Part shown: positions 22,183 to 44,133 of the stretch, piece after piece
How positions within the stretch are numbered: position 1 is the stretch's first letter
Layout of the letters: each line of letters begins with the position of its first letter
Virus record (IMG/VR): IMGVR_UViG_3300037424_001256
Location: 1 to 64,000 of that record
Length of the DNA stretch: 64,000 nt
Reading direction: 5' to 3' (one strand)
Source: a virus
Taxonomy: Duplodnaviria; Caudoviricetes
The notes under the pieces: generated by a model
Told to the model about the DNA's origin: nothing
The model's input: the letters and a program-made list of their open reading frames with translations, nothing else
Databases searched by the model: none
Program-made: the position numbers and the translations under genes

Positions 22183-22803
22183 CTATGACCAATCACCATA
22201 AAACCATAAATATCCACCCGATGACTTAGACACCCTTTTTAAGTGCTTAGATAAATTAGTGCGTCCGATACCTGTTTCCTTGCTTGCTTGCTCGATTGAT
22301 GCATAAGATTTTATAAAATTTCCACGAAGATCATGTTGGGATACCTTCTTGTTGCCATAATGTTTTCCGATTAGTTTCTTAGAATAATGGTTATCTCCTT
22401 TAGGAACATATTGTAATCCTAGTTTAATGGCATGAATTATGTTTTCCGAATTAGTTGCCCATTCTAGATTCAATTCATGACAATGTATTTTATCCCCATC
22501 CTTATGATTGACTTGTGTTTTATTTTCTGGATTTGGAATAAAGGCTAATGCCACAAGTTGATGTACACTATATTGTTTACTTCTAAGATTCAATTTCAAG
22601 TAACCATCCTGTTTTTTCCTTTTCTTATTCCGTGCAATTTCTGGCTTAAGTATGCGTTGAGGCGTATCGGAAACATAAAATCCATAAGAACCAGAACATC
22701 TTTTTAAATAACTAGTAATTGTTCCGTCATTTGTAATTTTATAACCAGTTAAGTGCTCTAAGCCTTGTATGTCGCATAACCATTTCTCTTTCATAACACA
22801 CAC
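22183..22803 (-). mobile_element. NUMOD4/HNH/NUMOD1 homing endonuclease gene inserted against the operon direction
   Basis: VHQLVALAFIPNPENKTQVNHKDGDK..NLEWATNSENIIHA; C-terminal YASIEQASKETGI. Confidence 0.85.
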
Positions 22804-23709: not shown

Positions 23710-24264
23710 ATGCAGATGACAGAGGAACAAAGAAAATTAGTTGAGGATCATATTAAGCTTGCATGGTTCATGACTCATAAATGGGCAAAAAGAGGAACCT
23801 TCTATTTTGGGATAGATGAGATGTTTAGTATATTTTCCCTTGCGCTCTGTAAGGCTGGTTATACTTATAGTAATAAAAGGGGCACCAAATTTATAACCTA
23901 CGCTACTAAATGTATGGAAAATGAAATAAGAATGGCATTTAGAAAAAGATTCAACACGGGTCAATCTAGGGAATTGTCAATGATTAGCATGGACAAATTT
24001 GGGAATGAAGTTGATTATAGTGAAATATTTACAGATGATACACATTTAGAATTAGATGAAGTATTGGATTTGATGGTACTTAAAGATGCATTAAATATAT
24101 TGAACGATAAAGAACTAAGAATACTTAAATTGCGTTATTGTGATGAAATAAGCCAACAAAAAATAGCTGGTATAATTAATATCTCAAGAAGTTATGTGTC
24201 TCGTATCGAGAGAAGATCGTTAAGAAAACTAAAAAAATGGTATGATGAAAATGTTCAGGTATAA
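23710..24264 (+). CDS. sporulation-type (SigE/SigK-like) sigma factor 1
   Basis: KFITYATKCMENEIRM (region 2); SQQKIAGIINISRSYVSRIERR (region 4). Confidence 0.85.
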   Translation: MQMTEEQRKLVEDHIKLAWFMTHKWAKRGTFYFGIDEMFSIFSLALCKAGYTYSNKRGTKFITYATKCMENEIRMAFRKRFNTGQSRELSMISMDKFGNEVDYSEIFTDDTHLELDEVLDLMVLKDALNILNDKELRILKLRYCDEISQQKIAGIINISRSYVSRIERRSLRKLKKWYDENVQV

Positions 24265-24822: not shown

Positions 24823-24965
24823 ATTTGGCAGGGTTTTGGCAGGGTTTTGTCCATTTACAATGTGAAAGAAACATGTTATATTAATGCTGAGACAACCACG
24901 AAAAACATACAAAACGGCTTCTTTTGAAGTCGTTTTTTTACTTTCATTAAATAGAGGTGATTTAG

Positions 24966-25472
24966 ATGGCAAGTAGAGGTAGACCGGACATGCTCACCCC
25001 AAAGCTTAGGGAGGATCTTCTCAAAATGATTGTGGCTGGAAATTATATTGAAACTGCAGCGGCTTACGTGGGAATTGCTCAACAAACCTTGCGTGAATGG
25101 ATGAGGAGAGGGGAAAGGGAGGCGCAAAGATTATATTCAGATCCAGATGCAAGACCAATAAAATCAGAGGGAAAATACTTGGAGATATCACAAGCTATCA
25201 GACAGGCTCAGGCTGAGTCTGAAGTTAGGGATGTTGTTTTGATAGGCAGGGCTGCCCAAGAACAGTGGCAAGCGGCTGCGTGGAGATTGGAGAGAAGATA
25301 TCCAGATCGTTGGGGTAAGAAGGAACGCCATGAAGTTACAGGTGCAAATGGTGGACCAGTCCAATTCGAAGAAATACGCGAACGATTACTAAGGAAATTA
25401 ACAGAAATTAATGTTGAGGAACATAGTAGTAGGGATGGGAGAAAAATGATCAGTGGAGATAGAGAAGATTGA
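24966..25472 (+). CDS. terS: terminase small subunit
   Basis: GNYIETAAAYVGI, WQAAAWRLERRYPDRWG, HEVTGANGGPVQ. Confidence 0.8.
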   Translation: MASRGRPDMLTPKLREDLLKMIVAGNYIETAAAYVGIAQQTLREWMRRGEREAQRLYSDPDARPIKSEGKYLEISQAIRQAQAESEVRDVVLIGRAAQEQWQAAAWRLERRYPDRWGKKERHEVTGANGGPVQFEEIRERLLRKLTEINVEEHSSRDGRKMISGDRED

Positions 25473-25941
25473 GCTATCTAAAATAAAACCAGCTAAATAT
25501 AATCCCCGGAAAGACCTGAAAAAGGGTGATGCGGAATATGAGAGGATCAAAAAAAGCATAATTGAATTTGGCTTAGTAGATCCACTCATCGTAAATACTG
25601 ACTTTACCTTGATAGCTGGTCATCAAAGGTTAAAGATATTGCGAGAACTTCATTTTTCAGAAGTTGATTGCGTAGTATTAAGGCTTACGAAGAAAAAAGA
25701 AAAGGCTTTAAACTTAGCCCTTAATAAAATCACTGGAAAATGGGATAACGCATTATTAAAAGATCTGCTTCAGGATCTGGATACAGGTTCATTTGATATG
25801 GAGTTGACTGGATTCAGCACCATAGAATTAGAGAACTTACTTACAGTCATTCCAGATATTGAAGAAAATGATGATAAGTTTGACTTCGATAAAAAGGGAA
25901 AAGTCAATTGCCCAAGATGCGGTCACGAATTCGAACTCTAA
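25453..25941 (+). CDS. ParB/Srx-like domain protein with C-terminal zinc ribbon
   Basis: KPAKYNPRK, SIIEFGLVDPL, IAGHQRL; CPRCGHEF. Confidence 0.85.
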   Translation: MEIEKIELSKIKPAKYNPRKDLKKGDAEYERIKKSIIEFGLVDPLIVNTDFTLIAGHQRLKILRELHFSEVDCVVLRLTKKKEKALNLALNKITGKWDNALLKDLLQDLDTGSFDMELTGFSTIELENLLTVIPDIEENDDKFDFDKKGKVNCPRCGHEFEL

Positions 25942-25961
25942 AAAAATGGGGGAGAATACTT

Positions 25962-26177
25962 TTGAAACCTGAAACAATAGAAAATAATTTCAGTTATCAT
26001 GCTCCCAAAAAGGGGCAACACGAAAAATATAATGCTATTAGGACAAAGGCGAAAGAATTAGCTTATCTACTGGATGAAATGTGTCCAATATGCAGAGAAA
26101 AATCAGTGGCCTTTACTAAATTGGAAGAATGCGTAATGTGGGCAAATTCGTCTATTGCGAGGGAAAAAATAGACTAA
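25962..26177 (+). CDS. Acb2/Tad1-like hairpin protein (candidate cyclic-nucleotide sponge)
   Basis: GGGGGAG RBS + TTG; NFSYHAP..REKSVAFTKLEECVMWANSSIAR. Confidence 0.65.
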   Translation: MKPETIENNFSYHAPKKGQHEKYNAIRTKAKELAYLLDEMCPICREKSVAFTKLEECVMWANSSIAREKID

Positions 26178-27170
26178 ATGTGGGGGAAATATATGGCTCA
26201 TGTTTTTCTAGATAAGAATATACTCATATCAGGTGGTACGGGTACGTTTGGAAGAAATTTTGTAAAATGGCTCCTAGAGAAAGAAAATCCCAAACGAATA
26301 ATTATATTTTCAAGAGATGAACTAAAGCAACATGATATGAGAACAAACGGATACGATGACGAACGTATTCGTTTTTTTATTGGTGATGTAAGGGACAAGG
26401 AAAGACTTAGGAGGGCTTTGCATGGAGTAGATATAGTTATCCATGCCGCAGCTTTAAAACAAGTACCAGCATGTGAGTATAATCCTTACGAAGCAGTTAA
26501 AACAAATGTAATAGGTACTCAAAATGTCATCGAATCTTCCATTGATGCGCGAGTAGAACGTGTCATGGCAATATCTACTGATAAAGGATGTATGCCAAGT
26601 AACACATATGGAGGAACTAAATTTTTATCAGAGCGACTTGTTATAAATGGAAATGCTTATGCAAGTAGGACTAAAACAAAATTTAGCTGTATCCGATACG
26701 GAAATGTGACTGGTTCGCGTGGTAGCATTGTTCCCTTGATGATTAAACAAAGGGACGAAGGACAACCGATTACGATCACGGACGTTAGAATGACTAGATT
26801 TTGGTTACAGCCTGAGAGGGCTTGCGAAATTGTGGCTAAGGCAATCGAAGTAATGCATGGTGGAGAAATATTTATTCCCAAGATACCAAGCATTAGAATT
26901 CTAGACTTAAAGAGAGCTATTGCCCCGGAGTCAGAAACTAAATATATAGGAATTCGCGAAGGCGAAAAACTCCACGAATCATTAGTTGGTGAACAAGAAG
27001 CGCCACTTACTATTGATACTGGAGATTTTTTTATTATTGAGAGTCCTCAGGACTGGTTCCAGAGAGGACGAATCAAAGGAGAACCATTCAGGAAGCAAAG
27101 ATACGTCAGTGATGAGAATGATGATTTCTTAACTATTGATGGAATAAAGAAAAGCATTGGCAGTGCTTAA
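26178..27170 (+). CDS. pseB: UDP-GlcNAc 4,6-dehydratase (PseB/FlaA1-like)
   Basis: GGTGTFG, FSRDELKQ, GDVRD, HAAALKQVPACEYNP, STDK, YGGTK, RYGNVTGSRGS, GIREGEKLHE. Confidence 0.93.
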   Translation: MWGKYMAHVFLDKNILISGGTGTFGRNFVKWLLEKENPKRIIIFSRDELKQHDMRTNGYDDERIRFFIGDVRDKERLRRALHGVDIVIHAAALKQVPACEYNPYEAVKTNVIGTQNVIESSIDARVERVMAISTDKGCMPSNTYGGTKFLSERLVINGNAYASRTKTKFSCIRYGNVTGSRGSIVPLMIKQRDEGQPITITDVRMTRFWLQPERACEIVAKAIEVMHGGEIFIPKIPSIRILDLKRAIAPESETKYIGIREGEKLHESLVGEQEAPLTIDTGDFFIIESPQDWFQRGRIKGEPFRKQRYVSDENDDFLTIDGIKKSIGSA

Positions 27171-27190
27171 TTAATTGGGGGAAAAATTAA

Positions 27191-27421
27191 ATGGAAAAAA
27201 ATTCTATATGCAAAAATATTTCGAAGATATTAGAAGATTTAAGGCAGATAAATTTTGATTTTCCAGAGTTAGTACCTTTTATTGAAAGCGGAATATTAAA
27301 TATTCCAATGGCAAAATTAATCAGCAGTAGGATGGATCTAAGTTTAAGGGGAAGACTTCTTGATAAATTGAGGAGCGGAAAAGATCCTTATATTATAGAT
27401 CTTGTTTTGCAAAGAACATGA
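27191..27421 (+). CDS. hypothetical protein
   Basis: GGGGA RBS; ends just before array E. Confidence 0.5.
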   Translation: MEKNSICKNISKILEDLRQINFDFPELVPFIESGILNIPMAKLISSRMDLSLRGRLLDKLRSGKDPYIIDLVLQRT

Positions 27422-27424
27422 TTT

Positions 27425-27753
27425 TACTAGCCAGTTAAATGGATAGAACCCATTGAATAAGAGCGAGCCAAAGGTCAGGATATTATCAAATACGATGAGT
27501 AAATCAAAAAATATAGATTGTATCAAATAATTAGATTGAACCAATATGGTTAGAGTACCATTCCGTAAGAGTGAATCAAAGGATCTAAATGTATCATGTC
27601 GCGCGAATGAATCAAAGGTATCGAATTAATCAGCTTCTTGGAGTGAATCACAATGATGATCTGAACATGTACCCGAATGCGCCAATGCATATGAATAATC
27701 AACCCTTTTGAGCGAGCCATTTGCAAGAAAGAAACAAAAACTAAGAGCGATCA
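27425..27753 (+). ncRNA. TIGR-like array E (about 9 units) inside the sugar cluster
   Basis: Edge motifs gagcgagcca (27461), gagtaaatca, gattgaacca, gagtgaatca, gaatgaatca, gagtgaatca, gaatgcgcca, gagcgagcca, gagcgatca (27745), at ~36-nt period with loop motifs. Confidence 0.78.
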
Positions 27754-27781
27754 AAAATCAAATTGGAAGAGGTAGGACAAT

Positions 27782-28051
27782 TTGAGATTAGGGCAATTCA
27801 ATATCCAGAGAAGCGCTATCTTAGAATTACCAGAGTTGGTCATGGCAATTACTGCTAGGATGATTATTTATCGGGCTGAGATGATGTTCCATAAAGATTG
27901 CGTGGAGTACATTGCCATTTCTGATTTATTTGATGAGGTAGAGCAAGGGCAATGCCCACCGGAATATATGATAATCGTCGAGACAAACGAGGATGGCACA
28001 TATGTAATTTCAGCGCAAAAGAAGAGGGATAGGGTGACACCATTTCAATGA
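27782..28051 (+). CDS. conserved phage hypothetical protein
   Basis: VEYIAISDLFDEVEQGQCPPEY; GAGGTAGGA RBS. Confidence 0.6.
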   Translation: MRLGQFNIQRSAILELPELVMAITARMIIYRAEMMFHKDCVEYIAISDLFDEVEQGQCPPEYMIIVETNEDGTYVISAQKKRDRVTPFQ

Positions 28052-28068
28052 TGAGATGGTTTTTTTAG

Positions 28069-28992
28069 TTGGGGGGAAAAGCAATGGAATTCCATCCGAT
28101 ATGTGAGATATTCCCAAAAATGAATGACCAAGAATTCCTAGATTTGATTCAGGATATAGCGGTAAATGGACAGATTGAATCTATCAAAACTTATCAAGGT
28201 AAGATTATTGACGGTAGGAATAGGTTCTTAGCTTGTCAGAGGTTGAATGTAGAACCAGTTTTTAGTGAGTGGGATGGTAGGGGTTCGCTTGTCTCGTATG
28301 TGCTGAGCTTGAATCTAATTAGGAGACATTTAACGGCAAGTCAGGGAGCAGTAGTTGCAAATAAAATTCTTCCATTCAAGGAAGAAGAAGCGAGAGAGAG
28401 ACAAAAAACATTGGCAGGAACTAGACCAAATACAGATATAGACCTTAGTCAAAAAATTGACGAAGGTATTATTAAGGGAAGAGCAACAGAACAGGTTGCT
28501 CAAATGTTTGGAACAAATCGCCAATATGTTACCGATGTTAAGAAGATAAGTGAAAATGCTAAGGAACTAATTCCTTTTATTGAAGATGGGACATTAACAG
28601 TCCCAGAAGCAAAGATTATTTCAAGAGATGTTGAGCCAGAACGCAGACAGGAAGTTATCCAAAAGTTCAAAGATATTGATTCAGGTGGGAAAAAGCCCAA
28701 AGTTTTGGAGTTGGTCGGAGGTGAAAAGAAGGAAAAGAAGGTTGAAAAAGTAGATCCAAGAGATCCAGAAATTAAGGAATATGATGAATACATAGATAAA
28801 TGCGATAAGATTGCAGATGAATTTAGAGAGGTAATTTATCAATTCGTATTACTTGATGTGGATGATGGAAATTTAAACGCTTGGTCACAATTTTTAGATG
28901 CGAAAGATGTGATACAGGCAAACATTGATAATATGGAAATTATTTTATCTAAAGTTCTAAAGATTAAAAAATTTCTGAGGGGGTTAAAATAG
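28069..28992 (+). CDS. ParB-like N-terminal domain protein with HTH
   Basis: FHPICEIFP, IIDGRNR, SLNLIRRHLTASQ, VAQMFGTNRQYV. Confidence 0.8.
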   Translation: MGGKAMEFHPICEIFPKMNDQEFLDLIQDIAVNGQIESIKTYQGKIIDGRNRFLACQRLNVEPVFSEWDGRGSLVSYVLSLNLIRRHLTASQGAVVANKILPFKEEEARERQKTLAGTRPNTDIDLSQKIDEGIIKGRATEQVAQMFGTNRQYVTDVKKISENAKELIPFIEDGTLTVPEAKIISRDVEPERRQEVIQKFKDIDSGGKKPKVLELVGGEKKEKKVEKVDPRDPEIKEYDEYIDKCDKIADEFREVIYQFVLLDVDDGNLNAWSQFLDAKDVIQANIDNMEIILSKVLKIKKFLRGLK

Positions 28993-29451
28993 GTGGCTAT
29001 ACAAAATGTCCGAAGACCAAGAACGGATAAAAAGGTTAAAGAAAGAATCGAAATCTTAATTAAAGATGGAAAAGCTAGATCAAGGGAAGAATTATACGAA
29101 ATCATGGAACCATATTATCAGGAAGACCCAGAGGCATCCAAATACAGAGATTTTAGATGTTGGTGTAATGGTATTTTGGCAAGTTTTAAGGATGAAGATG
29201 GAGTAAGATCATGTTTGAATTTTAAAAAAGTAACAAAGAAAAAGGGGAAAGTAATTAAAAGTGAATCCAGATGGGTTGATATAGACACAACGAAAGACCT
29301 CAAAGCATTAAAGGAAATTGAAAAATCTTTAGATAAAAAAAGAGCTGGAATCACGAATACACAAATGAAAGTTAATAAGAGATACAAAAAAGTTCATAAA
29401 GACCAACAAAGATTTAATTTTGATAAAGGAACGGTTGAGAGTGGAGAGTAA
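28993..29451 (+). CDS. basic hypothetical protein
   Basis: Abuts the ParB-like gene; Lys-rich. Confidence 0.6.
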   Translation: MAIQNVRRPRTDKKVKERIEILIKDGKARSREELYEIMEPYYQEDPEASKYRDFRCWCNGILASFKDEDGVRSCLNFKKVTKKKGKVIKSESRWVDIDTTKDLKALKEIEKSLDKKRAGITNTQMKVNKRYKKVHKDQQRFNFDKGTVESGE

Positions 29452-29476
29452 GGATTAAAGAGAGGGTGAGGAACTT

Positions 29477-30565
29477 TTGATTCCCTACGCCAAGCACAAA
29501 CTGGAAGCTGAGGACATCATTGAAGTCATGAGAGCATTGCAAGGACCAAGTATAACTCAAGGCACCATGATTGATTGGTTTGAAGATGTTTTCAGGGAAG
29601 CAGTAGGAGCCAAATACGCAGTAGCAGTATCAAGTGGTACCGCAGCACTTCATGCTTCATTGATGGCAATCGGGATTGGTCCCGGTGATGAAGTCATTGT
29701 ACCATCCATGACATTTGTCGCAACGGCGAACGTAGTCAAGTATCTTAATGCTACTCCTATATTTGCAGACATTGATCCTGAAACATTATTGGTAGATCCA
29801 GAAGATATTGAAAAGAAGATTACAAATAAAACCAGAGCTATAATAGTTGTGGATTTTTCTGGTCAACCAGTAGATTATTCTGCTATAAAAGAAATTTGCG
29901 AGAGATATCATCTAATCCTGATTGCGGATGCTTGCCATAGCTTGGGAGCAACTTATAAAGGTGAAAAAGTTGGTAAACTGGCAGATCTTAATTGCTTTAG
30001 CTTACATGCTACTAAACTAATAACCAGCGCCGAAGGTGGAGTAATTACAACGGATGACAAATGTTATTACGATAAAATGAGAGCTTTTCGTAACCATGGG
30101 AGAATAGATGGAGACATGATGTTGCTTGGATATAATTACCGAATGACTCATCTACAGGCGGCGTTATGTATTAACCAAATCAAGAGAATACCAAATTTAG
30201 TTGCAGTAAGGCAAACTATAGCTGAATTTTACGATAATCAACTTAAGGAATTAGGAATAAAATCCTTGAAGCAGAAGGTAGATCGGACAAATGCAAGGCA
30301 TATATATGTGATATTCGCCAAGCATCGCGAAGCATTAAGGTCAAAGTTAGAGATTTATGGCATTGGTAGTCAAATACATTACAAACCGATTACATTACAG
30401 AGCTATTATGATTGTCCCGGATCTACTCCGAGGGCTGAAGATATATGGAGAAGCATACTAACGATCCCTTTATATCATCACTTAATTGAAGGTGAGCAAA
30501 AAACTATAATTAGGGCATTAAAATCGGCAAGTGAATACGTAGAGAACTATAAAGAAAAGCAATGA
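29477..30565 (+). CDS. pseC: PLP-dependent DegT/DnrJ sugar aminotransferase (PseC-like)
   Basis: MIPYAKH, AVSSGTAALH, VPSMTFVATAN, DACHSLGA, FSLHATKLITSAEGG, GYNYRM. Confidence 0.92.
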   Translation: MIPYAKHKLEAEDIIEVMRALQGPSITQGTMIDWFEDVFREAVGAKYAVAVSSGTAALHASLMAIGIGPGDEVIVPSMTFVATANVVKYLNATPIFADIDPETLLVDPEDIEKKITNKTRAIIVVDFSGQPVDYSAIKEICERYHLILIADACHSLGATYKGEKVGKLADLNCFSLHATKLITSAEGGVITTDDKCYYDKMRAFRNHGRIDGDMMLLGYNYRMTHLQAALCINQIKRIPNLVAVRQTIAEFYDNQLKELGIKSLKQKVDRTNARHIYVIFAKHREALRSKLEIYGIGSQIHYKPITLQSYYDCPGSTPRAEDIWRSILTIPLYHHLIEGEQKTIIRALKSASEYVENYKEKQ

Positions 30566-30604
30566 TATAATATTTGCTTTTCTTTATTTTTTGGAGGAAA
30601 AGCG

Positions 30605-31168
30605 ATGAGATTAACGGAGGGGCAACAGAAAATTGTTGAAGACAACATTAGGCTAGCTGGTTACATGACTCAGAAATGGATTAAAAAAGGTGTACGCAAT
30701 ATCGACCAAGATGAGATATTTTCCCTGTTTTCCTTTGCGCTCTGCAAGGCAGCAGCTACCTTTGATCCAAATCGGGGAGCTAAATTCGCAACGTATGCTG
30801 GACGTTGTATGGAAAACGAACTAAAAATGGAATTTAGGAGAAAAGATAGAGGCGGGGGAGAAAATTCAGAGATTACATTTGGGACAGTTATTAAGTCAGA
30901 TGAAAATGGAGGCGAAGTTGAACTCCATGAAGTCCTTAGAGATGACTCCTATCTTGAATACGATAGAATTATTGATGTTATGTATGCGAAAGAAGCCCTT
31001 ATGATCTTGAGTGACAGGGATATGGCAATCCTCAAGGGTAAATATTTTTTCGAGGAAACACAAAGATCAATTGCAGGAAGACTTAATATTTCTCAATCGT
31101 ATGTTAGTAGAATTGAAAAGAAGATATTACGTAGGTTGAGGCAATGGAATAGAGGTAAAGTATCTTGA
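30605..31168 (+). CDS. sporulation-type (SigE/SigK-like) sigma factor 2, embedded in the sugar cluster
   Basis: KFATYAGRCMENELKM; TQRSIAGRLNISQSYVSRIEKKIL. Confidence 0.87.
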   Translation: MRLTEGQQKIVEDNIRLAGYMTQKWIKKGVRNIDQDEIFSLFSFALCKAAATFDPNRGAKFATYAGRCMENELKMEFRRKDRGGGENSEITFGTVIKSDENGGEVELHEVLRDDSYLEYDRIIDVMYAKEALMILSDRDMAILKGKYFFEETQRSIAGRLNISQSYVSRIEKKILRRLRQWNRGKVS

Positions 31169-31186
31169 GTGGTGGGGTAAATTATT

Positions 31187-31696
31187 ATGAGATCAAGCTT
31201 AAAGAAGTTTATCATTAGAACTTTAGGATTACGAGAAAATATATTTCATCCCCTCGTCCTTATTAATGGTGATCCAGACATAGGGGAAAATGTTTACATA
31301 GGAGCTTTGTCTGAAATAAATTCCAAGGGTGCGAGGGTATCCATTGGTATGAATTCTGATATAGCTTCTTTTGTCAGTATTAATGTTGCTGACAGTCACA
31401 AAAGATGTATAGGCATTCAGGATAATATAGAACGAAGAGATATCATAATTGGGAATAATGTGTTTATTGGATCTCATTCACTTATTAAAGGTGGTGCTAT
31501 AATTGGAGATTACTCCGTTATTGCTTCTGGTACGATAGTAGATGGAGGAACTATTCCACCATATTCTCTTGTCCATGGGAATCCCATGAAAATAAAGGTA
31601 GGTTATTACTTTGAAAAGGTCAATCCCACACAACAGACCAACATTAGGAAAAGAGGAGGAGAGGGCATCTATCCGGGCTTTAAGGTCTGGGATTAA
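31187..31696 (+). CDS. hexapeptide-repeat (LbH) acyltransferase
   Basis: IGENVYIG, IGMNSDIA, IIIGNNVFIG, IGDYSVIASG, VHGNP. Confidence 0.85.
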   Translation: MRSSLKKFIIRTLGLRENIFHPLVLINGDPDIGENVYIGALSEINSKGARVSIGMNSDIASFVSINVADSHKRCIGIQDNIERRDIIIGNNVFIGSHSLIKGGAIIGDYSVIASGTIVDGGTIPPYSLVHGNPMKIKVGYYFEKVNPTQQTNIRKRGGEGIYPGFKVWD

Positions 31697-32588
31697 TCAG
31701 GGAAAAGAAGTTAAAGCTTTCGAAGATGAATTATGTGAATATCTGGGATTACCAGAAGATCATGCAGTAATGGTAAGTAGTGGAACGGCAGCTCTTTATT
31801 TAGCAGTTAGGCATATAAAAAAGAGAGAAATAACTTATCCAATATATAGTTTCCCTAGTGTCAGGAATGCTATCCTAATGGCAAATCGTCAACCAATTGA
31901 AACTGAATTGTCAGATCCAAATCAAGATATATTTTGCCATATGTTTGGAAATGTAAATACCACATTAACCTACCCAATGAGAAGAGGGAAAATTTTTATT
32001 GAAGACGCAACTCAAGCATTGGGAGCTAAAGCGGGATCAGATTTTATTGGGACACTTGGAACCTATGGAGTATTTTCTTTTGCATCAACAAGGATCATAA
32101 CTAGTGGTGGACAGGGTGGAGCAGTTGTTTCAATGAATAAATCAAGGATAGATGAAATCAGAGATTTACGTGACCTTGATATACGTAATGATACAAAACA
32201 GAGATTTAATTTTGGAATGACAGATTTACAAGCAGCGATAGGGCGTGAGCAATTAAAGAAGATTGATAATTTTCTTGAACGTCGAGAAGAAATATTCCAA
32301 AAATATCTCAATGGTGGTCTTGATCTACTAAGAAATAAAAATGAATATATCACAGATGTCAGATATGGTGCCATTGTAAGGGCGCATAAACCCTTAAAAA
32401 TGATAACAGATCTAGGAAGGAGGGGAGTAAGGGCTTTAATTCCAATTGAAGATCTTGAAGTACCGAATGCTAAAATGTTTCACCAATCATATGCTCTAAC
32501 TAAAAATAGAGTTTCTTTACCTATTTACCCAACTTTGACAGATAAATATGTCGATTTGATTATTTCAGTAGCAAGAAAATATATCTAA
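31611..32588 (+). CDS. second DegT/DnrJ-family protein with the catalytic Lys apparently replaced by Arg
   Basis: MVSSGTAALY, IEDATQALGA, FSFASTRIITSGGQGG, FNFGMTDLQAAIG. Confidence 0.85.
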   Translation: MKRSIPHNRPTLGKEEERASIRALRSGINQGKEVKAFEDELCEYLGLPEDHAVMVSSGTAALYLAVRHIKKREITYPIYSFPSVRNAILMANRQPIETELSDPNQDIFCHMFGNVNTTLTYPMRRGKIFIEDATQALGAKAGSDFIGTLGTYGVFSFASTRIITSGGQGGAVVSMNKSRIDEIRDLRDLDIRNDTKQRFNFGMTDLQAAIGREQLKKIDNFLERREEIFQKYLNGGLDLLRNKNEYITDVRYGAIVRAHKPLKMITDLGRRGVRALIPIEDLEVPNAKMFHQSYALTKNRVSLPIYPTLTDKYVDLIISVARKYI

Positions 32589-32617
32589 AATGTTATAACT
32601 ATAGGGGGAAGAGTAAA

Positions 32618-33691
32618 CTGAAGATTATTAGTAGTCTAAAACAAACTATAAGCATTAATAAGAGCGATATCGGAGATGGATATCCAGTATTTATTGTTGC
32701 AGAAGTTGGAGTCACGGCAAATGGCTCACTAGAAAAAGGTAAATCATTAATTGAAATAGCTAAAAATTCAGGTGCAGATGCCGTAAAGTTTCAAACGATA
32801 GATTGTGATGATTTTATGGCAGATAAATCTGTTCTTTATAAATACGAGACACTAGAAGGATTCAAGGAAGAGAACATGTATGAAATGCTCAAGAAGAACA
32901 GATTTACGCAGAGTGAACTTATTGAATTATCTAGATATGCAAGGAAATTAGGAATTATATTCTACTTATCTGTTGATAGTATTAGGAGTGTTCAATGGGC
33001 CGATAATGCAAATTCAGCAACTTATAAAATAGGCTCTTGGGATTTGCGTAATTATCCCTTGCTTGAAGCAGTAGCTAAAAGTGGAAAATCAATCCAAATT
33101 GATTTAGGACCAGTTATTTTAGGCGAAATCGTGCAGATGCTTGAATTCCTAGAGTTTCATGGAGCGACAGAGATTATGCTTGTTCATTGTAGTCATGCAA
33201 GTAAATTGTCTAATCTAAATCTAAAAAGTATTACATATCTCAAAGATATGTTTAATGTTCCAGTAGGATACTCCGCAGATACTAGAGAGATAATACCTGA
33301 TATAACAGCAATATCTTTAGGTGCAAAAATGATTGAGAAAAGACTCACCTTAAGTCGTAACGAATTAGGCCACCATCATATTAAGGCTCTTGAGCCAAAA
33401 GAATTTATGGATTGGGTGGATATTATTCGAAAAACTGAAGCGACATTAGGACTTAAGAAATTAATACCTTCCTACGAGGATCTTTCAATCAAAAATCTAT
33501 ATTTCACTAGTATAGCTACTACCAGAGAAATAGCAGAAGGTGAATTCATAACGAAAGATATGCTTGGTGCAAAAAGACCGGGAACAGGTGTTTCTCCTTT
33601 ATATATGGATCAAATCATAGGTAAACGTACTAATAGATCATTTCAGGAGAATGAAATCATTGCTTGGGATGATTGGGGTAGTTTCAAATGA
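32618..33691 (+). CDS. NeuB/PseI/SpsE-family nonulosonate synthase 1 with SAF domain (probable CTG start)
   Basis: Frame open upstream of ATG 32816: FIVAEVGVTANGSLE..ADAVKFQT; YKIGS, GYSAD, IEKRLTL, KRPGTG; GGGGGAAG RBS before CTG 32618. Confidence 0.88.
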   Translation: MKIISSLKQTISINKSDIGDGYPVFIVAEVGVTANGSLEKGKSLIEIAKNSGADAVKFQTIDCDDFMADKSVLYKYETLEGFKEENMYEMLKKNRFTQSELIELSRYARKLGIIFYLSVDSIRSVQWADNANSATYKIGSWDLRNYPLLEAVAKSGKSIQIDLGPVILGEIVQMLEFLEFHGATEIMLVHCSHASKLSNLNLKSITYLKDMFNVPVGYSADTREIIPDITAISLGAKMIEKRLTLSRNELGHHHIKALEPKEFMDWVDIIRKTEATLGLKKLIPSYEDLSIKNLYFTSIATTREIAEGEFITKDMLGAKRPGTGVSPLYMDQIIGKRTNRSFQENEIIAWDDWGSFK

Positions 33692-34737
33692 AATTAATTG
33701 AAATTGATGGAAAATTTATATCAAATAATTCAATTTATACTATTGTAGAGTCCGGGATAAACCACAACGGTAGCATACAAACTGCTTACCAAATGATTGA
33801 AGTTGCGAAGGAATCTGGAGCAGATGCAATAAAATTCCAGACATTCAGGGCAGATGAATTTTGCGATAAAGAATCTTATCTATATCCAATTTTCAAAAAG
33901 TGTGAAATAAGATCGGATCATTGGCAGTATATCAAAGAAAGGTGCGATTTATTTAAAATAACATTTCTCTCAACCCCCCAGAACTTTTCGGACCTTGAAA
34001 TTTTATTGGGTTGTGGTGTTAAGGCAATTAAAATAGGATCTGATGATTTGACCAATGTTTCATTAATCAGGAAATATTCAGAAACTAAATTACCGATAAT
34101 ACTATCTTGCGGTATGGCTGATGAGTCGGAAATTAATATTGCAACTGAAACAATTAGGGAGTATGAGAGACACTATCCTTTGATATTAATGCATTGCACG
34201 TCATCTTATCCCACGTTTCCCAAAGATGTAAACATGAGGAAGTTAATTAGAATGGGAGTAAAGTATCCCGAAATGATACTTGGGTATTCTGACCACACAT
34301 ATGGACATATAGCTAGTGTCCTTGCGGTAGCATATGGTGCAAGAGTATTTGAAACACACTTTACGCTGGATAATAACTATATAGGACCAGATCATGAATT
34401 TAGTAAAAATCCAAAAGCACTGAAGATATGGGTCAATTCTATACGTGAAGCTTATGATATGCTTGGTAACAGTGATTTAAGGCCAACTAAGCAAGAAGAA
34501 GATATGAGGATTGTTGCGAGAAGAACTATAACTGCAATTAAAGATATCAGAAAGGGTGATATCTTCACTGATAAAAATATCGGTATGATGCGTCCTGCTG
34601 TTGGCTTACCATCATTGTATCTTCCGGTATTTTTGAATGCCGAAGCAGGGAGAGATATTGATATAGGGGAAAAATTGCGAAAAGAAGATATTGCATACCA
34701 AAAAATGATGAATAATCCAAAGCATTTCTCTGAGTGA
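33688..34737 (+). CDS. neuB: NeuB/PseI/SpsE-family nonulosonate synthase 2 with SAF domain
   Basis: ESGINHNGS, ADAIKFQTF, KIGS, HCTSSYP, GYSDHT, ETHFTLD, GPDH, MRPAVG. Confidence 0.92.
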   Translation: MKLIEIDGKFISNNSIYTIVESGINHNGSIQTAYQMIEVAKESGADAIKFQTFRADEFCDKESYLYPIFKKCEIRSDHWQYIKERCDLFKITFLSTPQNFSDLEILLGCGVKAIKIGSDDLTNVSLIRKYSETKLPIILSCGMADESEINIATETIREYERHYPLILMHCTSSYPTFPKDVNMRKLIRMGVKYPEMILGYSDHTYGHIASVLAVAYGARVFETHFTLDNNYIGPDHEFSKNPKALKIWVNSIREAYDMLGNSDLRPTKQEEDMRIVARRTITAIKDIRKGDIFTDKNIGMMRPAVGLPSLYLPVFLNAEAGRDIDIGEKLRKEDIAYQKMMNNPKHFSE

Positions 34738-34753
34738 AAAGAGGGATAAGTTA

Positions 34754-35470
34754 ATGATTCTCGTAGATCATCAAACTTCTTATTTACCATGGCTTGGGTT
34801 TTTTCATAGATTATCTTTGGCAGATAAGTATATTAATTTTGATCAAGTTCAATACTCACCGCGTAATTGGATAAATCGAAACAGGATTAAGGTTAAGGAT
34901 AGGTTCCAGTGGCTTACTATACCTATTTTGTCTTCTGGACATCGAGGTAAAGTCGTTGCTGATATGGAGATAAATAACCAGACAAGATGGCGAGAAAAAC
35001 ATTGGGGAACGATCCAACATGCATATAAAAAATCACCATACTTTAATGAATACGCTGGTTTTTTTGAAGATCTTTATAAAATGGAATGGCAATATCTCAT
35101 AGACATAAATGAATACATGCTTAAGTGGTTCGTAAAAACATTAGGCATAACGATAGAGTTGGATGATGCTGTAAATTATAAGTTTATAGGATCTAAAAGT
35201 GATCTTATTTTAGATATGTGCAAACAGTTGAATACGGATATCTATATATTTGGTGGAGAAGGTAAAAATTACGCAGATATTAAATCTTTCGAGAAGGAAA
35301 ATATTAAAACTTATTTCCAAGAGTATAAGCATCCTGAATACAATCAAAGATTCGGTAAATTTATTCCAAATTTGAGTATTATAGATCTGTTATTCAATGA
35401 GGGTCCGAAATCACTTGAAATAATAAAAAATGGTAACGTTACAAAAGAAACTTTAATGGAGATGATTTAA
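34754..35470 (+). CDS. wbqC: WbqC-family protein
   Basis: HQTSYLPWLGFF, DQVQY..WINRNRI, YKHPEYNQ, PNLSIIDLLFNEG. Confidence 0.9.
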   Translation: MILVDHQTSYLPWLGFFHRLSLADKYINFDQVQYSPRNWINRNRIKVKDRFQWLTIPILSSGHRGKVVADMEINNQTRWREKHWGTIQHAYKKSPYFNEYAGFFEDLYKMEWQYLIDINEYMLKWFVKTLGITIELDDAVNYKFIGSKSDLILDMCKQLNTDIYIFGGEGKNYADIKSFEKENIKTYFQEYKHPEYNQRFGKFIPNLSIIDLLFNEGPKSLEIIKNGNVTKETLMEMI

Positions 35471-36144
35471 TGTTCTCTGAGGCATGGGAGGGAAGGTTTT
35501 CCCAAGGAAAAAGCCATTCATTGTTTCCTTGGACGGATTTAATATCTTATATTTCCAAGTATAGAAAAATAGAAAGGGGGGATAAGGTATTAGAACTTGG
35601 TCCGGGTGTTGGGGCCAATATCCCATATTTCTTATCAAGGGGTGCTGAATACTATGCTATTGAGGGTAGTAAAACTGCAGTATCAGAAATTATCAAGAGG
35701 TTCCCAGAACTTAAGGATAGGATAGTGGTAGGAGATTTTACGGAAGCTATTCCGTTTCCAGATAAATTCAAATTGGTAATTGATAGGGGTTCAATTACCC
35801 ACAATTCTACCGTAGGGATACAAAAAGCATTAAAGATGGTTCACGATAAACTAGATAATGATGGAAAATATTTCGGAATAGATTGGTTTTCATGGTTTCA
35901 CGGAGAAAGACCAAGGGGTAAAAATGAAGATGATATTTACACCTACTCATTTGAAGATGGGAAACTCGAAGGTCATGGCAAGGTTCATTTCAGCACAAAA
36001 AGTCATTTATTTGAAATGTTTATCGATGCAGATATCAGAATTGAGGTATTACATCATAAGACTATTCAAGGAAAGCTGATTAGTGATGATCCTGAAAATA
36101 TTCAAGCAACATGGAATGTAGTGGGTAGAAAAATGAAAGCTTGA
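35470..36144 (+). CDS. class I SAM-dependent methyltransferase
   Basis: KVLELGPGVGAN, YAIEGS, VIDRGSITH. Confidence 0.85.
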   Translation: MFSEAWEGRFSQGKSHSLFPWTDLISYISKYRKIERGDKVLELGPGVGANIPYFLSRGAEYYAIEGSKTAVSEIIKRFPELKDRIVVGDFTEAIPFPDKFKLVIDRGSITHNSTVGIQKALKMVHDKLDNDGKYFGIDWFSWFHGERPRGKNEDDIYTYSFEDGKLEGHGKVHFSTKSHLFEMFIDADIRIEVLHHKTIQGKLISDDPENIQATWNVVGRKMKA

Positions 36145-36154
36145 GGAATTAAAT

Positions 36155-36853
36155 ATGAAATCCATGGCTATTATACCTGCAAGAAGTGGGTCAAAAAGAC
36201 TTCCCGGCAAAAACCTTTGTAAGATAAATGACAAAACTCTTCTTGAGTATGCAATAGAAGCAAGTTTGAGTAGCGCTATTTTCTCGGACATAATTGTAAC
36301 TAGTAATGATCCAGAACTTCTAGATTTGGTAGCTACTAAGTTTGGCGATAAAGTTCTCTATCACTTGAGGCCGTCCAGTTTAAGTCAAGACGATAGCATG
36401 TTAAAGACTCTATTAAAATATCTTATTGAATTATATGAAAATGAATCAAAAAACTTGGACTTGGTTATGGCTTTAATTTTGCCTACTTCTCCATTGCGAA
36501 CTTCAGAAGATATCAGATCTGCGTCAGCGCTCATGAAGAAAAACTTTGAAAATATTAATGGAGTCATGAGTGTTTCAAGATTAAGATATCCTCCACAACA
36601 CAGTTTATTAGTAGATAAAGATGGGTTTGTTCAACTTATGCACCCAGAGTATGTGGATATACAGAGTCAAAATTTAGAACCAGCATATATCCATGATGGA
36701 TCTATCATCATCGTAAAGCCTAAACAGTTTCTCAAGTATGGGGATTTTTATATGCCGGGAATTATTCCATTTTATATCGACGAAAATAGGGCAATTGATA
36801 TAAATACAGAGTTTGATTTGAAATTAGCCAGATATTTGATGAAGGAGAAGTGA
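36155..36853 (+). CDS. neuA: acylneuraminate cytidylyltransferase (NeuA/PseF/SpsF-like)
   Basis: AIIPARSGSKRLPGKN, RPSSLSQD, PTSPLR, IDINTEFDL. Confidence 0.92.
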   Translation: MKSMAIIPARSGSKRLPGKNLCKINDKTLLEYAIEASLSSAIFSDIIVTSNDPELLDLVATKFGDKVLYHLRPSSLSQDDSMLKTLLKYLIELYENESKNLDLVMALILPTSPLRTSEDIRSASALMKKNFENINGVMSVSRLRYPPQHSLLVDKDGFVQLMHPEYVDIQSQNLEPAYIHDGSIIIVKPKQFLKYGDFYMPGIIPFYIDENRAIDINTEFDLKLARYLMKEK

Positions 36854-36869
36854 AGATGGACGGTGATAC

Positions 36870-37574
36870 ATGACTAAGATTTTGGTGGTTTGCGCTCACC
36901 CAGATGATGAAGTTCTCGGATGTGGTGGCATGTTAGCAAGATTAACTAGGATTGATAAGCAAGAAGTCTTTATTGGGTATCTTAGTTATGGACTTACATC
37001 TCGGATTAATACCCCGGAACTTGATGAAGTGGAAAAGGAAAGAGTCAAGGAAAAAAGTAGAAAAGCTATTGAAGTATTAACAGGTTTACCAAGGCCAATC
37101 ATTAAAAAGAATCTCAGATTCGCAAATTATCCAGACAATATGTTTGATAGCGTCCCATTGTTGCAGATTACAAAGGTTATCGAAGGTTGGGTTGATGAAA
37201 TTAAGCCAGATGTTATATTTACTCATTCCAATAAAGATCTAAACATAGATCATAGGATTACGCATGGTGCCGTATTGACAGCTACAAGACCAATTCATGG
37301 TGAGCACATAGTCAAAACGATCTATTCTTTTCAAATTCCCTCAAGCACAGAATGGTCATTTGGTAATTATGGAAAATTTAATCCGAATGTTTTCTTGAAT
37401 GTAACAGGGTTCCTGCACAACAAACAAGAGGCTCTAGAATGTTACGATACCGAGGTGAGGGAATTTCCACATCCACGTAACTTATTGGCGATATATTACT
37501 CAGCTCATCTAGCTGGTTCTGTAGTAGGAATGGCTGAAGCTGAAGCGTTTGAGTTAATCAGGGGGTTAATTTAA
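36870..37574 (+). CDS. PIG-L/LmbE-family deacetylase
   Basis: VCAHPDDEVLGCGG, FTHSNKDLNIDH, SSTEW, HPRN, AEAF. Confidence 0.9.
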   Translation: MTKILVVCAHPDDEVLGCGGMLARLTRIDKQEVFIGYLSYGLTSRINTPELDEVEKERVKEKSRKAIEVLTGLPRPIIKKNLRFANYPDNMFDSVPLLQITKVIEGWVDEIKPDVIFTHSNKDLNIDHRITHGAVLTATRPIHGEHIVKTIYSFQIPSSTEWSFGNYGKFNPNVFLNVTGFLHNKQEALECYDTEVREFPHPRNLLAIYYSAHLAGSVVGMAEAEAFELIRGLI

Positions 37575-37701
37575 TAATTAGTGGGGCGACTCTAGGGATC
37601 GTGCTGCTTCCGCACTCACTATTCCGAGTAACTAGGGGAGTTGCAGACGCATAAGGGGCGAAGAGCGTCATTGATAAAATAGTTTATAAGGGTGATAAAC
37701 T

Positions 37702-39052
37702 TTGAAAGATTTAATATCAAACTTAAGTAGGTTAAGTAAAGAGCAGAAAGCAAAGTTCATAGAAAGCTTGAGCCCTGAAGAACTTATAAACATTGCCTAC
37801 GATTGGGAGGGGGTGTTCGCTCGTCCCAGCCAATTAGAACCAGCCGGGGATTGGACCTATTGGTTGATCCTAGCTGGTCGTGGCTGGGGTTAGCTAACCT
37901 ATAGGCAAAACTAAAACTGCTGGCGAATGGATAAGAAAAAGAATATATACAGGAGAAAGCAGACATCTTGCGTTAATTGCTCCAAGGGCAGCAGATATCC
38001 GGGATGTTATGATAGAAGGGCCAAGTGGCTTGCTTAATTGTTTCGAGCCAAGTCATAGACCAATTTACGAACCTTCAAAGAGAAGAGTAACATTTCATAC
38101 TGGAGCTACGGCAATAACTTATTCCGGTGATGAACCAGATCAATTGCGCGGCCCCAATATAGACTCATTTTGGGTCGATGAGTTGGCGGCGTGTAGGTTG
38201 CAGAAAGAGATCATGGAAATGCTTGCCTTTTGCTTGAGAATTGGTTCTAATCCAAGAGGTATAATTACCACAACTCCAAAACCAACAGTCACCGTTAAGG
38301 GGTTGGTAAGACAAAAAAATGTAGTAGTAACAAGAGGTTCAACTTTTGAAAACAGGGATAACTTATCACCTGTTTTTTTTGACTCCATTATTGGAAAGTA
38401 CGAAAATACGCGTATTGGCAGACAAGAGTTGATGGGTGAAATACTGGAAGATAACCCAAAAGCTCTTTGGAAGAGTAGCGAAATAGACCAGCATAGGGTA
38501 AGTAAAGCACCTATCTTTAGAAGAATTGTTATTGGCGTTGATCCAGCGATTAGCGCAAATAAAAAGTCTGACGAAACAGGAATTGTTGCAGTTGCAAAAG
38601 GAGTGGATGATCATTTCTACGTCTTAGATGATCATTCTTGCAAGGAAACTCCCTCTAAGTGGGGTAAGGCTATCTGCAATCTATATGATAAATGGGAGGC
38701 AGACAAAGTTATTGGAGAGGTTAATCAGGGTGGAGATATGGTTTCTTATGTCATCAAGAACATTGATCCTTTGATTAACTTCAAATCAGTCCGGGCAACA
38801 AGAGGTAAGAAACTTAGAGCTGAGCCTGTAGCTAGCCTCTACGAATCTGGAAAAGTTCACCATTTAGGAGTATTTCCAGAACTTGAAACACAAATGGTAG
38901 AGTGGAATCCAGAGGAAGATACAGGATCTCCCGATAGAATAGATGCCTTATGTTGGGCAATTTGGGAATTGATGGATCTTAAAAAGAAGGGCATAGGTAA
39001 ATACAATCCTAGTGGAATAACTGATTTCAAAAGAGAAAGTCCAAATATGTAG
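37702..39052 (+). CDS. terL: terminase large subunit interrupted by a 16-nt insertion (stop + frameshift) in Walker A
   Basis: 37702-37890 ends LILAGRGWG; frame resumes GGC AAA ACT at 37904 (GKTKTAGEW) into ORF 38009-39052 with WVDELAA, GVDP, DETGI, ESGKVHH, PDRIDA. Confidence 0.88.
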
Positions 39053-40614: not shown

Positions 40615-40905
40615 ATGGGTTTCAAGGGTTTCAGTAATACGAAAACGAGAACTATAGCTGAAGCTTACTTTATCATCGAAAACGAAGCTACTATAAGAGC
40701 AACAGCATCTGCTTTTGGGGTTAGTAAGAGTACGGTCCACCGCGATATAAGGACTCATCTCGAAGATCTCGATCTAGTTCTTTACAATAAAGTGAGAGAT
40801 ATCATTAGCTTAAATTTAGCAGAACGACATATCAGGGGTGGTCAGGCTACAAAGCTTAAAAAGTTCAAAGAGTCATCTACTAAAAGTCTTGAGAGGAGAT
40901 CTTGA
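40615..40905 (+). CDS. spoIIID: SpoIIID-family sporulation transcription regulator
   Basis: TIRATASAFGVSKSTVHRDI...RHIRGGQATK, matching SpoIIID GVSKSTVHKD...RHLRGGEAT. Confidence 0.88.
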   Translation: MGFKGFSNTKTRTIAEAYFIIENEATIRATASAFGVSKSTVHRDIRTHLEDLDLVLYNKVRDIISLNLAERHIRGGQATKLKKFKESSTKSLERRS

Positions 40906-42635: not shown

Positions 42636-43556
42636 GTGACACAAATTAATATTACTGAACTTAAGGGTTTAAACGTTGAAGAAATATCTTTAGTAGCTAA
42701 ACCAGCAAACGAAAGGATATTCTTACTTTTAAAACAAGAAGGAGGGTCCACCTTGGATCAATTGGATGATGTCTTGAAATCACTTGCTGAGCTAGATATT
42801 GATCTAGAGAATGCTGAAAGCATCGAAGATATCATGAAAAAGATGAAGTTGAGTGAAAAGGCTTCTAAGGCTTGCAAAGGTGCTCTCAAACTAATGTCGG
42901 CATATAAGGAAGAAATGCCGAAAAGCTTCATGGAAAAGCTGATTAGCATGGCTGGTTATGGTGATATGGAAGAAGAAGAAGTGGAAATGCAAAAACCAGC
43001 AAAACCAAAAGGAGGAAAAGAAATGCCTAAAACAACCCCTGTTGTCGAGGAAAAAAAGAGGATGAAGAAAGAAGACGGGTCATTAGATTTTGATGCCATT
43101 CCTGAAGAGTCACGGGAACTTGTTCAGATGCTTTGGAAAGAACATGAAACCGCAGTTCAAAAGGCTCAAAAACTTGAGACTGACCTTAAAATTGAACGAG
43201 ATATCAGGGTTACTAAAGAATTCCAAGATAGAGGGAAGGGATTCCCCAATATCGGTACAGCCGAAGTGGTTGGCGATGTCTTGAGAAAAGCCTTTGACGT
43301 TTCCGATGAATACGGAAATCAATTAGAAGTAATTCTCAGAGATGCTAATACCAAGATTGAAAAATCGGAACTGTTTATCGAGAAGGGAACCAGTGCAAGA
43401 AGTATCGCCGATAGTTCATGGGCTAAGATCGAAGAACTTGCAAAAAGTATGGTCACTAAGGGTCAGGGTCAGACAATGGCACAAGCCATTGATAGAGTTT
43501 TGGCTGAAAATCCTCTACTCTACGAAGAATACACCAAAGAAAGGAGCGGTAAATAA
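42636..43556 (+). CDS. capsid scaffolding protein
   Basis: EEISLVAKPAN start, acidic/coiled-coil body, position before head genes. Confidence 0.7.
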   Translation: MTQINITELKGLNVEEISLVAKPANERIFLLLKQEGGSTLDQLDDVLKSLAELDIDLENAESIEDIMKKMKLSEKASKACKGALKLMSAYKEEMPKSFMEKLISMAGYGDMEEEEVEMQKPAKPKGGKEMPKTTPVVEEKKRMKKEDGSLDFDAIPEESRELVQMLWKEHETAVQKAQKLETDLKIERDIRVTKEFQDRGKGFPNIGTAEVVGDVLRKAFDVSDEYGNQLEVILRDANTKIEKSELFIEKGTSARSIADSSWAKIEELAKSMVTKGQGQTMAQAIDRVLAENPLLYEEYTKERSGK

Positions 43557-43957: not shown

Positions 43958-43985
43958 TTAAATTGTTTGTAAAAATTTAAGATTT

Positions 43986-44045
43986 AGCACGGTCTAGGGC
44001 ATTGCCCGAAATTACTGAATCCCCCCCAGTAAGACCGTGCTTTTT
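43986..44045 (+). terminator. three-way-junction hairpin followed by a T tract, between cement and MCP genes
   Basis: AGCACGGTCT/AGACCGTGCT closing stem with GGGCA-t-TGCCC and TTACTG..CAGTAA sub-hairpins. Confidence 0.55.
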
Positions 44046-44133
44046 GTTTGCCTTTTTAGGGGGTTTTTATTCCACGTGAACATCGTTTTATGTAAATTTA
44101 AATTTATGAAAATTGGAATAAATTGAAGAAGGA

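Follow-up and report, generated by a model that had tools for sequence, protein, structure and literature searches.

Nonulosonic acids are sugars found on the surfaces of bacteria, archaea and animals. The DNA considered here, called the window throughout, is the first 64 kb (positions 1 to 64,000) of an 88,032-bp IMG/VR record (IMGVR_UViG_3300037424_001256; completeness 100% by CheckV) from an uncultured, tailed phage that carries a cluster of sugar-enzyme genes between terS and terL, encoding the small and large terminase subunits. Judged by its gene content, the conclusion that the phage encodes a tailored pathway to a cytidine monophosphate (CMP)-activated nonulosonate holds. It also seems reasonably probable, from gene families and predicted folds, that the sugar is of the pseudaminic type and that, late in infection, it would be O-linked by the phage to exposed proteins of its own particle. 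An initial annotation of the same DNA had offered three destinations for such a sugar: the virion, the host surface or phage DNA. The virion is now favoured, because an enzyme of predicted GT42/Maf fold is encoded beside Ser/Thr-rich, appendage-like proteins and because its family co-occurs with NeuB and a cytidylyltransferase; the host surface is less supported, and DNA was left without support.

An intact sugar-enzyme cluster between the terminase genes

Open reading frame (ORF) listing combined with Pfam and NCBIfam scans showed ten sugar-enzyme genes, all intact and on the + strand, with terS upstream and terL downstream (Table 1). The enzymes named in the initial annotation were thus all confirmed, co-oriented, within this slot, as was the interleaving of phage-type genes: a ParB-N protein, an Acb2/Tad1-hairpin protein, a repeat array, a ParB-helix-turn-helix-like ORF and a sigma factor lie among the sugar genes. 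GC content is 0.34-0.40 throughout the cluster and the remaining phage, so that the cluster is not distinct in composition. A megablast search with the 12-kb cluster gave no match among deposited phages. Comparisons below are with four long phages of 82-88 kb (G001-G004), retrieved through their portal protein (80-83% identity) and termed here the long relatives.

PseB, which is 73-83% identical to the relatives' copies, exceeded its equivalog cut-off. The PseC-like aminotransferase has the pyridoxal phosphate (PLP) lysine in alignment and, like the PseF-like cytidylyltransferase, found its best match in the expected NCBIfam model (TIGR03588 and TIGR03584, respectively), though below the cut-off in each case. 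Pfam and NCBIfam scans detected no GNAT-type PseH in the phage cluster, where a left-handed beta-helix (LbH) acyltransferase is present instead; a GNAT is found in another phage (G062) and in the bacterial clusters described below. The PIG-L deacetylase recurs in 10/21 phage records having the module, as well as in bacterial clusters, where WbqC adjoins PseF and PIG-L. WbqC gave no match against solved structures, a scan of viral contigs with its single sequence gave none either, and the literature searched held incidental mentions only.

The two NeuB-family proteins differ in kind. NeuB2 is canonical, with the INHNG, SDH, THF and PDH motifs all intact and pseudaminic acid synthase PseI as its nearest solved relative (PDB 8h2c, E 3.8e-48); it scored 233.9 bits against TIGR03586 (cut-off 340) and higher, 290 bits, against the NeuB model (cut-off 399.65). 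NeuB1, whose nearest solved relative is SpsE (PDB 1vli, E 2.6e-34), has SAD for SDH and EKR for EKH, two motifs whose histidines bind the metal in NeuB of N. meningitidis. These replacements occur in the window, in all four long relatives, in a distant phage (G056) and in 119/120 database homologues, and a GHHH motif is invariant in the subfamily. Judged by its motifs, NeuB1 is a divergent, His-less paralogue and not a standard synthase; of the ‘two NeuB synthases’ of the initial annotation there remain two NeuB-family genes and one canonical enzyme, NeuB1 lacking both canonical metal histidines. The NeuB1-like subfamily is widespread in bacterial clusters of the pseudaminic type, immediately after PseC (loci L192-L228), and its function appears to have gone undescribed so far.

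NeuB1 seems N-terminally cut because its start codon is CTG: the ORF finder placed the start at 32816, and the frame is open from 32546. The protein is whole, at 357 amino acids (aa). The CTG (32618) is preceded by a GGGGGA ribosome-binding site, and at the identical position, behind the same site, each of the four relatives starts with ATG or TTG; truncation of NeuB1, or its fusion to the second DegT-family gene by frameshift, was rejected on these grounds. That second DegT-family aminotransferase (DegT2) has Arg at its PLP site in the window only (SFASTRIITS, compared with SFSATKIITS in all four long relatives; the lysine is also found in G056). The Arg codon, AGG at 32091-32093, is a single-base difference and may be a true loss or a sequencing error. 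The idea that DegT2 belongs to a family of lysine-less pseudo-aminotransferases proved wrong, the lysine being kept in the relatives.

The initial annotation had recognised no PseG/NeuC-type hydrolase, and this extends to the full record: models TIGR03590, PF04101 and PF02350 detected no PseG, NeuC or GT28 protein in all 88,032 bp, nor was PseG detected in the four long relatives. The hydrolase must therefore be supplied by the host or by an unrecognised phage enzyme. PseG-like genes are present in two other module-bearing phages (G056 and G066). PIG-L was entertained as a replacement for PseG and is unsupported as such, since the two coexist in bacterial clusters and in phage G056.

Conservation among relatives and a bacterial counterpart

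All ten enzymes lie between terS and terL in 4/4 long relatives, at 50-83% amino-acid identity. Gene order is rearranged there, NeuB1-NeuB2 preceding LbH-DegT2, so that each of these pairs behaves as a unit. The relatives have an extra TylF-like methyltransferase upstream, and the cargo of the gap between PseB and PseC varies, with ParB-like ORFs in the window and a Dam methyltransferase and others in the relatives. The ratio of non-synonymous to synonymous substitution rates (dN/dS) was 0.03-0.13 for every enzyme gene, and 0.055 for terL (less diverged pair, G002/G001). The cluster is under strong purifying selection. The initial annotation had allowed that the cluster might prove absent from relatives, host-like and frameshifted; its intact genes, its presence in every long relative and the selection acting on it speak instead for functional cargo.

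Scanning species-representative genomes with a NeuB1 alignment recovered 37 loci, from Phycisphaerae, Gaiellaceae, Syntrophobacteraceae, Omnitrophota, Patescibacteria and others, with the recurring order PseB, PseC, NeuB1-like, gap, NeuB2, second DegT, WbqC, PseF, PIG-L. PseG scored above its cut-off in 13/18 bacterial genomes. The gap position was mapped in locus L196 only; there PseG fills the gap, and a GNAT domain and the second DegT form a single fusion protein. This uncharacterised cluster from bacterial metagenome-assembled genomes (PseB-PseC-NeuB1like-PseG-NeuB2-(GNAT-DegT)-WbqC-PseF-PIG-L) comprises the same families as the phage relatives in nearly the same order, at 26-56% identity, and shares with the phage the His-less NeuB paralogue. 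The phage clade differs in having lost PseG, in having a separate LbH acyltransferase and DegT2 in place of the GNAT-DegT fusion, in having gained a sigma factor and one or two methyltransferases, and in its situation within a packaging operon. By gene content and order, the phage cluster is a copy, without PseG, of this bacterial cluster type.

A candidate sialyltransferase-fold enzyme in the head module

That no transferase was recognised in the initial annotation is true of the cluster itself; however, a candidate of GT42/Maf fold is encoded 9 kb downstream of it, in the head module (Table 1). The gene is single-copy in the genome and present in 4/4 long relatives, and its product has at least 185 homologues without family annotation. 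The AlphaFold model, built from 39 homologues, had a predicted local distance difference test (pLDDT) score of 84.8 and showed no predicted membrane segment. Among the Foldseek matches listed (13/16 at E<=0.001), all were bacterial sialyltransferases: GT42 enzymes Cst-I/CstII plus one from Pasteurella multocida. VIA-align, which is independent of Foldseek, matched residues 52-240 to Cst-I (Z 11.4, root-mean-square deviation 3.3 over 164 aligned residues), to Maf (5mu5, Z 9.5), to an MptE-type kinase (Z 9.3) and, less closely, to ST8SiaIII (Z 7.0). The best solved sequence for the family profile was again CstII (E 0.003, aligned to CstII residues 3-161), with putative nucleotide-binding motifs in register: GxxPS near the N-terminus, LNxxY, and S..w..A.a.GY.eI.vyGvD. 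A consensus HQRPS motif lies downstream of the GVDMA strand in the transferase family and may hold the counterpart of the catalytic base histidine of CstII. The assignment of a sialyltransferase-type fold with probable CMP-binding motifs was thus consistent across methods. No PHROG family was found for the protein, and nothing in the genome matched PF01973 (MptE-like Maf) at E <= 0.01, so that the likeness to Maf is one of fold only.

The only homologue in a deposited phage is a weak match, at 30% identity, in Microcystis phage Mvi-Yong1342-1 (L230, PP496355.1 34781-35584), where it is annotated as a ‘type 11 methyltransferase’ and stands just before terS. Given this position, and that the record had no NeuB match (E <= 1e-5), this phage was rejected as a useful model.

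The transferase bears on whether the nonulosonate might instead be attached to bases of the phage DNA as a defence against restriction. Such hypermodification would suit the position beside the packaging genes and the presence of ParB-like and Dam genes nearby. Those DNA-related neighbours, however, vary between relatives while the sugar genes stay; no thymidylate-synthase-like hydroxymethylase was found in the 88 kb; the sole transferase candidate resembles enzymes that sialylate proteins or glycans and is encoded in the head module; and no literature report of nonulosonate-modified DNA was found. We regard DNA as a highly improbable target.

Proposed acceptors in the head module

A Ser/Thr-rich protein is encoded immediately before the transferase, downstream of the capsid gene, in 11/12 distant phages as well as in three relatives and the window itself. 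At 65 non-close loci, which are not independent of one another, the upstream neighbour had a median Ser plus Thr content of 0.25, compared with 0.154 in other ORFs; a content of at least 0.22 was reached by 43/65 upstream neighbours and 183/763 other ORFs (Fisher p 9e-12, the same non-independence applying). The upstream neighbours are homologous, those of three distant phages sharing 30-40% identity with the window protein, and some have fibre-like N-terminal repeats.

Nearest the capsid gene stands the knob protein, for which an all-beta model with a disordered C-terminal tail was obtained (pLDDT 72.6). It had six matches at Z>=8, nearly all of them phage tailspike, baseplate or capsid-spike domains (Z 11.2-8.1; next 6.5), with tailspike domains at Z 10-11.2 and a capsid spike at Z 8.1; its BFVD matches were fibre proteins. 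Two terminal Ser/Thr residues were seen in 5/13 head-tail ORFs compared with 1/80 others (p 1.4e-4). The Gly-Ser/Thr tails within 43556-50606 comprise FGSS three times, GTTT and FST, and relatives keep GSS, GTT or GSSS.

A pathway of this kind could also serve to convert the host surface, the CMP-sugar being supplied for host flagellin, S-layer, spore coat or polysaccharide, with either the phage enzyme or host enzymes performing the transfer; receptors would be altered and other phages excluded, or the carrier would benefit. Prophage enzymes are documented to alter the pseudaminic acid of Acinetobacter capsule (PMC12053666), and a host that made pseudaminic acid would supply the absent PseG. 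The host may be an endospore former, to judge by a gene for a SpoIIID-like transcription regulator (40615-40905; PF12116, E 2e-27) that separates the portal gene from that of the protease. No tyrosine integrase was found in the phage. Set against conversion of the host surface is that, in many unrelated phages, the cluster lies between terS and terL and the transferase gene is flanked by those of the capsid and connector; both placements suggest late, lytic-cycle expression. Furthermore, the phage showed no sign of a flippase, a polymerase or a transferase anchored in the membrane (the initial annotation had likewise recognised neither of the first two), and the conserved partner gene encodes a phage appendage-like protein. 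Neither this partner nor the head-module position would be explained by conversion of the host surface. Host-surface conversion is, on this evidence, an unlikely explanation.

Co-occurrence of the transferase family with the sugar pathway

Members of the transferase family were found in at least 451 IMG/VR stretches. A sample of 31 viral contigs of at least 20 kb with distant transferase homologues (34-56% identity) contained NeuB in 17, and CTP_transf_3 in the same 17, among them 5/5 near-complete genomes. By comparison, among 49 phages whose portal is 52% identical, none had NeuB or the transferase, the sensitivity of the model for this control having been checked on the phage's own genome. 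Pathway content varies among the phages, from NeuB and PseF only (G074) up to sets like that of the window. Cultured phages are almost devoid of the module: NeuB was detected in 3/50,697 deposited phage records, and the transferase as the single weak match described above.

These counts also bear on the possibility that the phage genes raise or redirect the pseudaminic-acid pool of the host without an acceptor of the phage's own, the sialyltransferase-fold protein then having some other role. A pathway that is incomplete without PseG would fit such metabolic boosting, as would those module phages that have just NeuB and the cytidylyltransferase (as in G074). It sits poorly with the strict co-occurrence of the sialyltransferase-fold family with that pair, and with the maintenance of ten genes under selection, tailoring enzymes being pointless without a specific product and acceptor. 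We consider it doubtful at best.

Extended beyond this genome, the case for virion glycosylation would be that hundreds of uncultured tailed phages, the present one among them, coat exposed head-fibre or decoration proteins with a tailored, pseudaminic-type nonulosonate of their own making, by means of a transferase outside Pfam and PHROG; in the same reading the His-less NeuB1, with its EKR and GHHH motifs, would have a new enzymatic function, in common with many bacterial clusters. Taken as a whole, this reading may as easily be wrong as right.

Proposed pathway and the evidence weighed

The scheme that we infer, in its chemical steps, acceptor and timing, from the identity, integrity, conservation, predicted folds and co-occurrence of the genes is as follows. 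PseB and PseC would convert UDP-N-acetylglucosamine (UDP-GlcNAc; UDP, uridine diphosphate) to a UDP-4-amino-4,6-dideoxy-L-altro sugar, the 4-amine of which would be acylated by the LbH acyltransferase rather than by a GNAT PseH. A UDP-sugar hydrolase, the PseG step, whether from the host or an unrecognised phage enzyme, would free the hexose, which NeuB2 would join to phosphoenolpyruvate, and the PseF-like enzyme would form the CMP-sugar. Tailoring of the sugar or its N-acyl groups may be the task of PIG-L, WbqC, the methyltransferase, DegT2 and the His-less NeuB1. Finally, the GT42/Maf-fold enzyme would move the sugar onto Ser/Thr residues of the neighbouring knob or fibre proteins; the short Gly-Ser/Thr C-terminal tails of several head and connector proteins are further possible acceptors.

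Several observations count against glycosylation of the virion by such a pathway. Four core enzymes scored below NCBIfam equivalog cut-offs, so that the exact sugar is not fixed; the PseG step is missing in the phage clade, yet present in the bacterial template cluster; and DegT2 of the window is without its PLP lysine. The transferase falls below the Pfam CST-I threshold (PF06002; 17.5 vs 25 bits, E 0.003). Ser/Thr richness is usual in fibre-like beta proteins and is, alone, no sign of glycosylation. Some fragments have the transferase without NeuB, all of them at most 67% complete, and the co-occurrence counts are phylogenetically non-independent.

Table 1. Sugar-enzyme genes, slot boundaries and head-module genes considered in the analysis, in order of position in the window.
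Feature	Position	Strand	Evidence
terS, upstream slot boundary	24966-25472	+	phrog_4102 terminase small subunit, E 1.4e-38
PseB, inverting UDP-GlcNAc 4,6-dehydratase	26178-27170	+	TIGR03589 420.6 bits, over equivalog cut-off 407.75
PseC-like aminotransferase	29477-30565	+	PF01041 E 8e-108; TIGR03588 355.9 bits, under cut-off 423.5
Sigma-70-family factor inside cluster	30605-31168	+	Sigma70_r2 and r4 domains
LbH (left-handed beta-helix, hexapeptide) acyltransferase	31187-31696	+	PF00132 E 3e-12
DegT2, second DegT-family aminotransferase	31611-32588	+	PF01041 E 2e-39
NeuB1, NeuB-family paralogue, CTG start	32618-33691	+	EKR and GHHH motifs; dN/dS 0.07
NeuB2, canonical nonulosonate synthase	33688-34737	+	PF03102 E 2.5e-64
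WbqC-family protein, putative tailoring	34754-35470	+	PF08889 E 1.4e-73
S-adenosylmethionine-dependent methyltransferase, putative tailoring	35470-36144	+	PF13649 and PF08241
PseF-like CMP-nonulosonate synthetase	36155-36853	+	PF02348 E 2.5e-19; TIGR03584 139.8 bits, under cut-off 205.7
PIG-L/LmbE-family deacetylase	36870-37574	+	PF02585 E 1.3e-22
terL, downstream slot boundary	37702-39052	+	Terminase_6N + 6C domains
Cement/decoration-like head protein, ends GTTT	43556-43957	+	PF09956 E 7.6e-07
Major capsid protein	44134-45117	+	phrog_1005 E 1.5e-93
Ser/Thr-rich (28%) beta-sandwich knob protein, ends STFGSS, proposed acceptor	45205-45606	+	Model
Second Ser/Thr-rich (30%) protein, ends ATFGSS	45649-46536	+	In G002, absent in G003 and G004
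GT42/Maf-fold transferase candidate, long C-terminal helix	46551-47513	+	AlphaFold model, Foldseek, VIA-align, profile
phrog_1732 virion-module protein, ends SSFGSS (relatives GSSS)	47803-48264	+	PHROG

Neighbouring genes and other features

A terminator-like hairpin (24911-24936) lies directly upstream of terS. Compared with a full-length homologue, the frame of terL is broken by 16 nt (37891-37906) within the Walker A motif: over 37882-37922 the upstream frame reads ...GRGWG and then TAG, and GKT opens the downstream frame 16 nt on, such that neither a simple +1 nor a simple -1 shift joins the two. Between PIG-L and the start of terL is a GC-rich, non-coding stretch of 127 nt (37575-37701), without Rfam match, as was the whole of 24-40 kb. 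A promoter scan was uninformative, with fewer sites than in shuffled sequence.

The phage has two sigma-70-family genes, one at 23710-24264 and the other, at 30605-31168, within the sugar cluster. A tandem pair of sigma genes (as at L094 9157-10352) lies between PseC and NeuB1 in G001, G002 and G004, and a single gene in G003. Directly upstream of PseB, and kept in relatives, is an 89-aa ORF (25908-26177) that matches the Acb2/Tad1 hairpin domain (PF24729, E 2e-22) and whose product is a candidate anti-CBASS/anti-Thoeris nucleotide sponge. An HNH/NUMOD1 homing-endonuclease-like gene (22183-22803), between unannotated ORFs and the endolysin gene, is the sole minus-strand gene of that stretch. 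Within the head module, 41168-42631 encodes a 487-aa protein in which a uracil-DNA-glycosylase-superfamily domain (PF03167, residues 192-311) is combined with a prohead protease domain of XkdF type; two relatives (L102, L103) encode orthologues of 500-502 aa that end alike at the C-terminus.

Comparison with known systems and significance

The nearest characterised precedent is the CMP-pseudaminic acid pathway of Campylobacter and Helicobacter together with Maf, the phage having PseB above its cut-off and PseC-, PseI- and PseF-like enzymes. Relative to that pathway (PseB, PseC, PseH, PseG, PseI, PseF), the phage is without PseG and GNAT PseH, and has the LbH acyltransferase and five extra enzymes. 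Maf O-glycosylates flagellin, and the phage transferase has a similar predicted fold (Maf Z 9.5, GT42 Z 11.4), its proposed acceptor likewise being Ser/Thr on a repetitive surface protein; it differs in scoring below threshold for PF01973 and PF06002, and the acceptor would be a virion protein, not flagellin. GT42 enzymes Cst-I/CstII of Campylobacter jejuni (PF06002) are its best matches by structure and by sequence profile, although identity is ~15-18%, the phage protein has an extra C-terminal helix of 55 residues and a head-module context, and its donor is presumably a pseudaminic-type sugar, not Neu5Ac.

Among phages, the closest parallel is with mycobacteriophages, in which phage-encoded glycosyltransferases are reported to modify virion proteins, capsid and tail-tube subunits carrying glycans at their C-termini (Freeman et al. 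2023, as described in PMC12619734). Those C-terminal glycans recall the Gly-Ser/Thr tails seen here. The glycosylating mycobacteriophages reportedly use ordinary glycosyltransferases and host nucleotide sugars; the present phage, by contrast, encodes its own sugar pathway (PseG step excepted), and for a nonulosonate. The sps genes of Bacillus subtilis include the nearest solved relative of NeuB1, SpsE (1vli), but SpsE keeps the His ligands in the printed alignment, and no link to spore-crust synthesis was found besides that likeness and the SpoIIID-like phage gene.

No paper was found in the literature on nonulosonate self-glycosylation or virion sialylation by phages, nor on a module of this type; ‘nonulosonic’ in one Bacillus phage paper occurs in a reference title only. 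The near-absence of the module from cultured phages would explain its escape from experiment. If glycosylation of the virion is borne out, it would constitute a new class of virion modification, with possible roles in shielding, in adhesion to mucus, biofilm or sediment matrix, or in mimicry of host surfaces. It would also define a new transferase family along with its acceptor family, and would give a function to a widespread and unstudied type of bacterial gene cluster.

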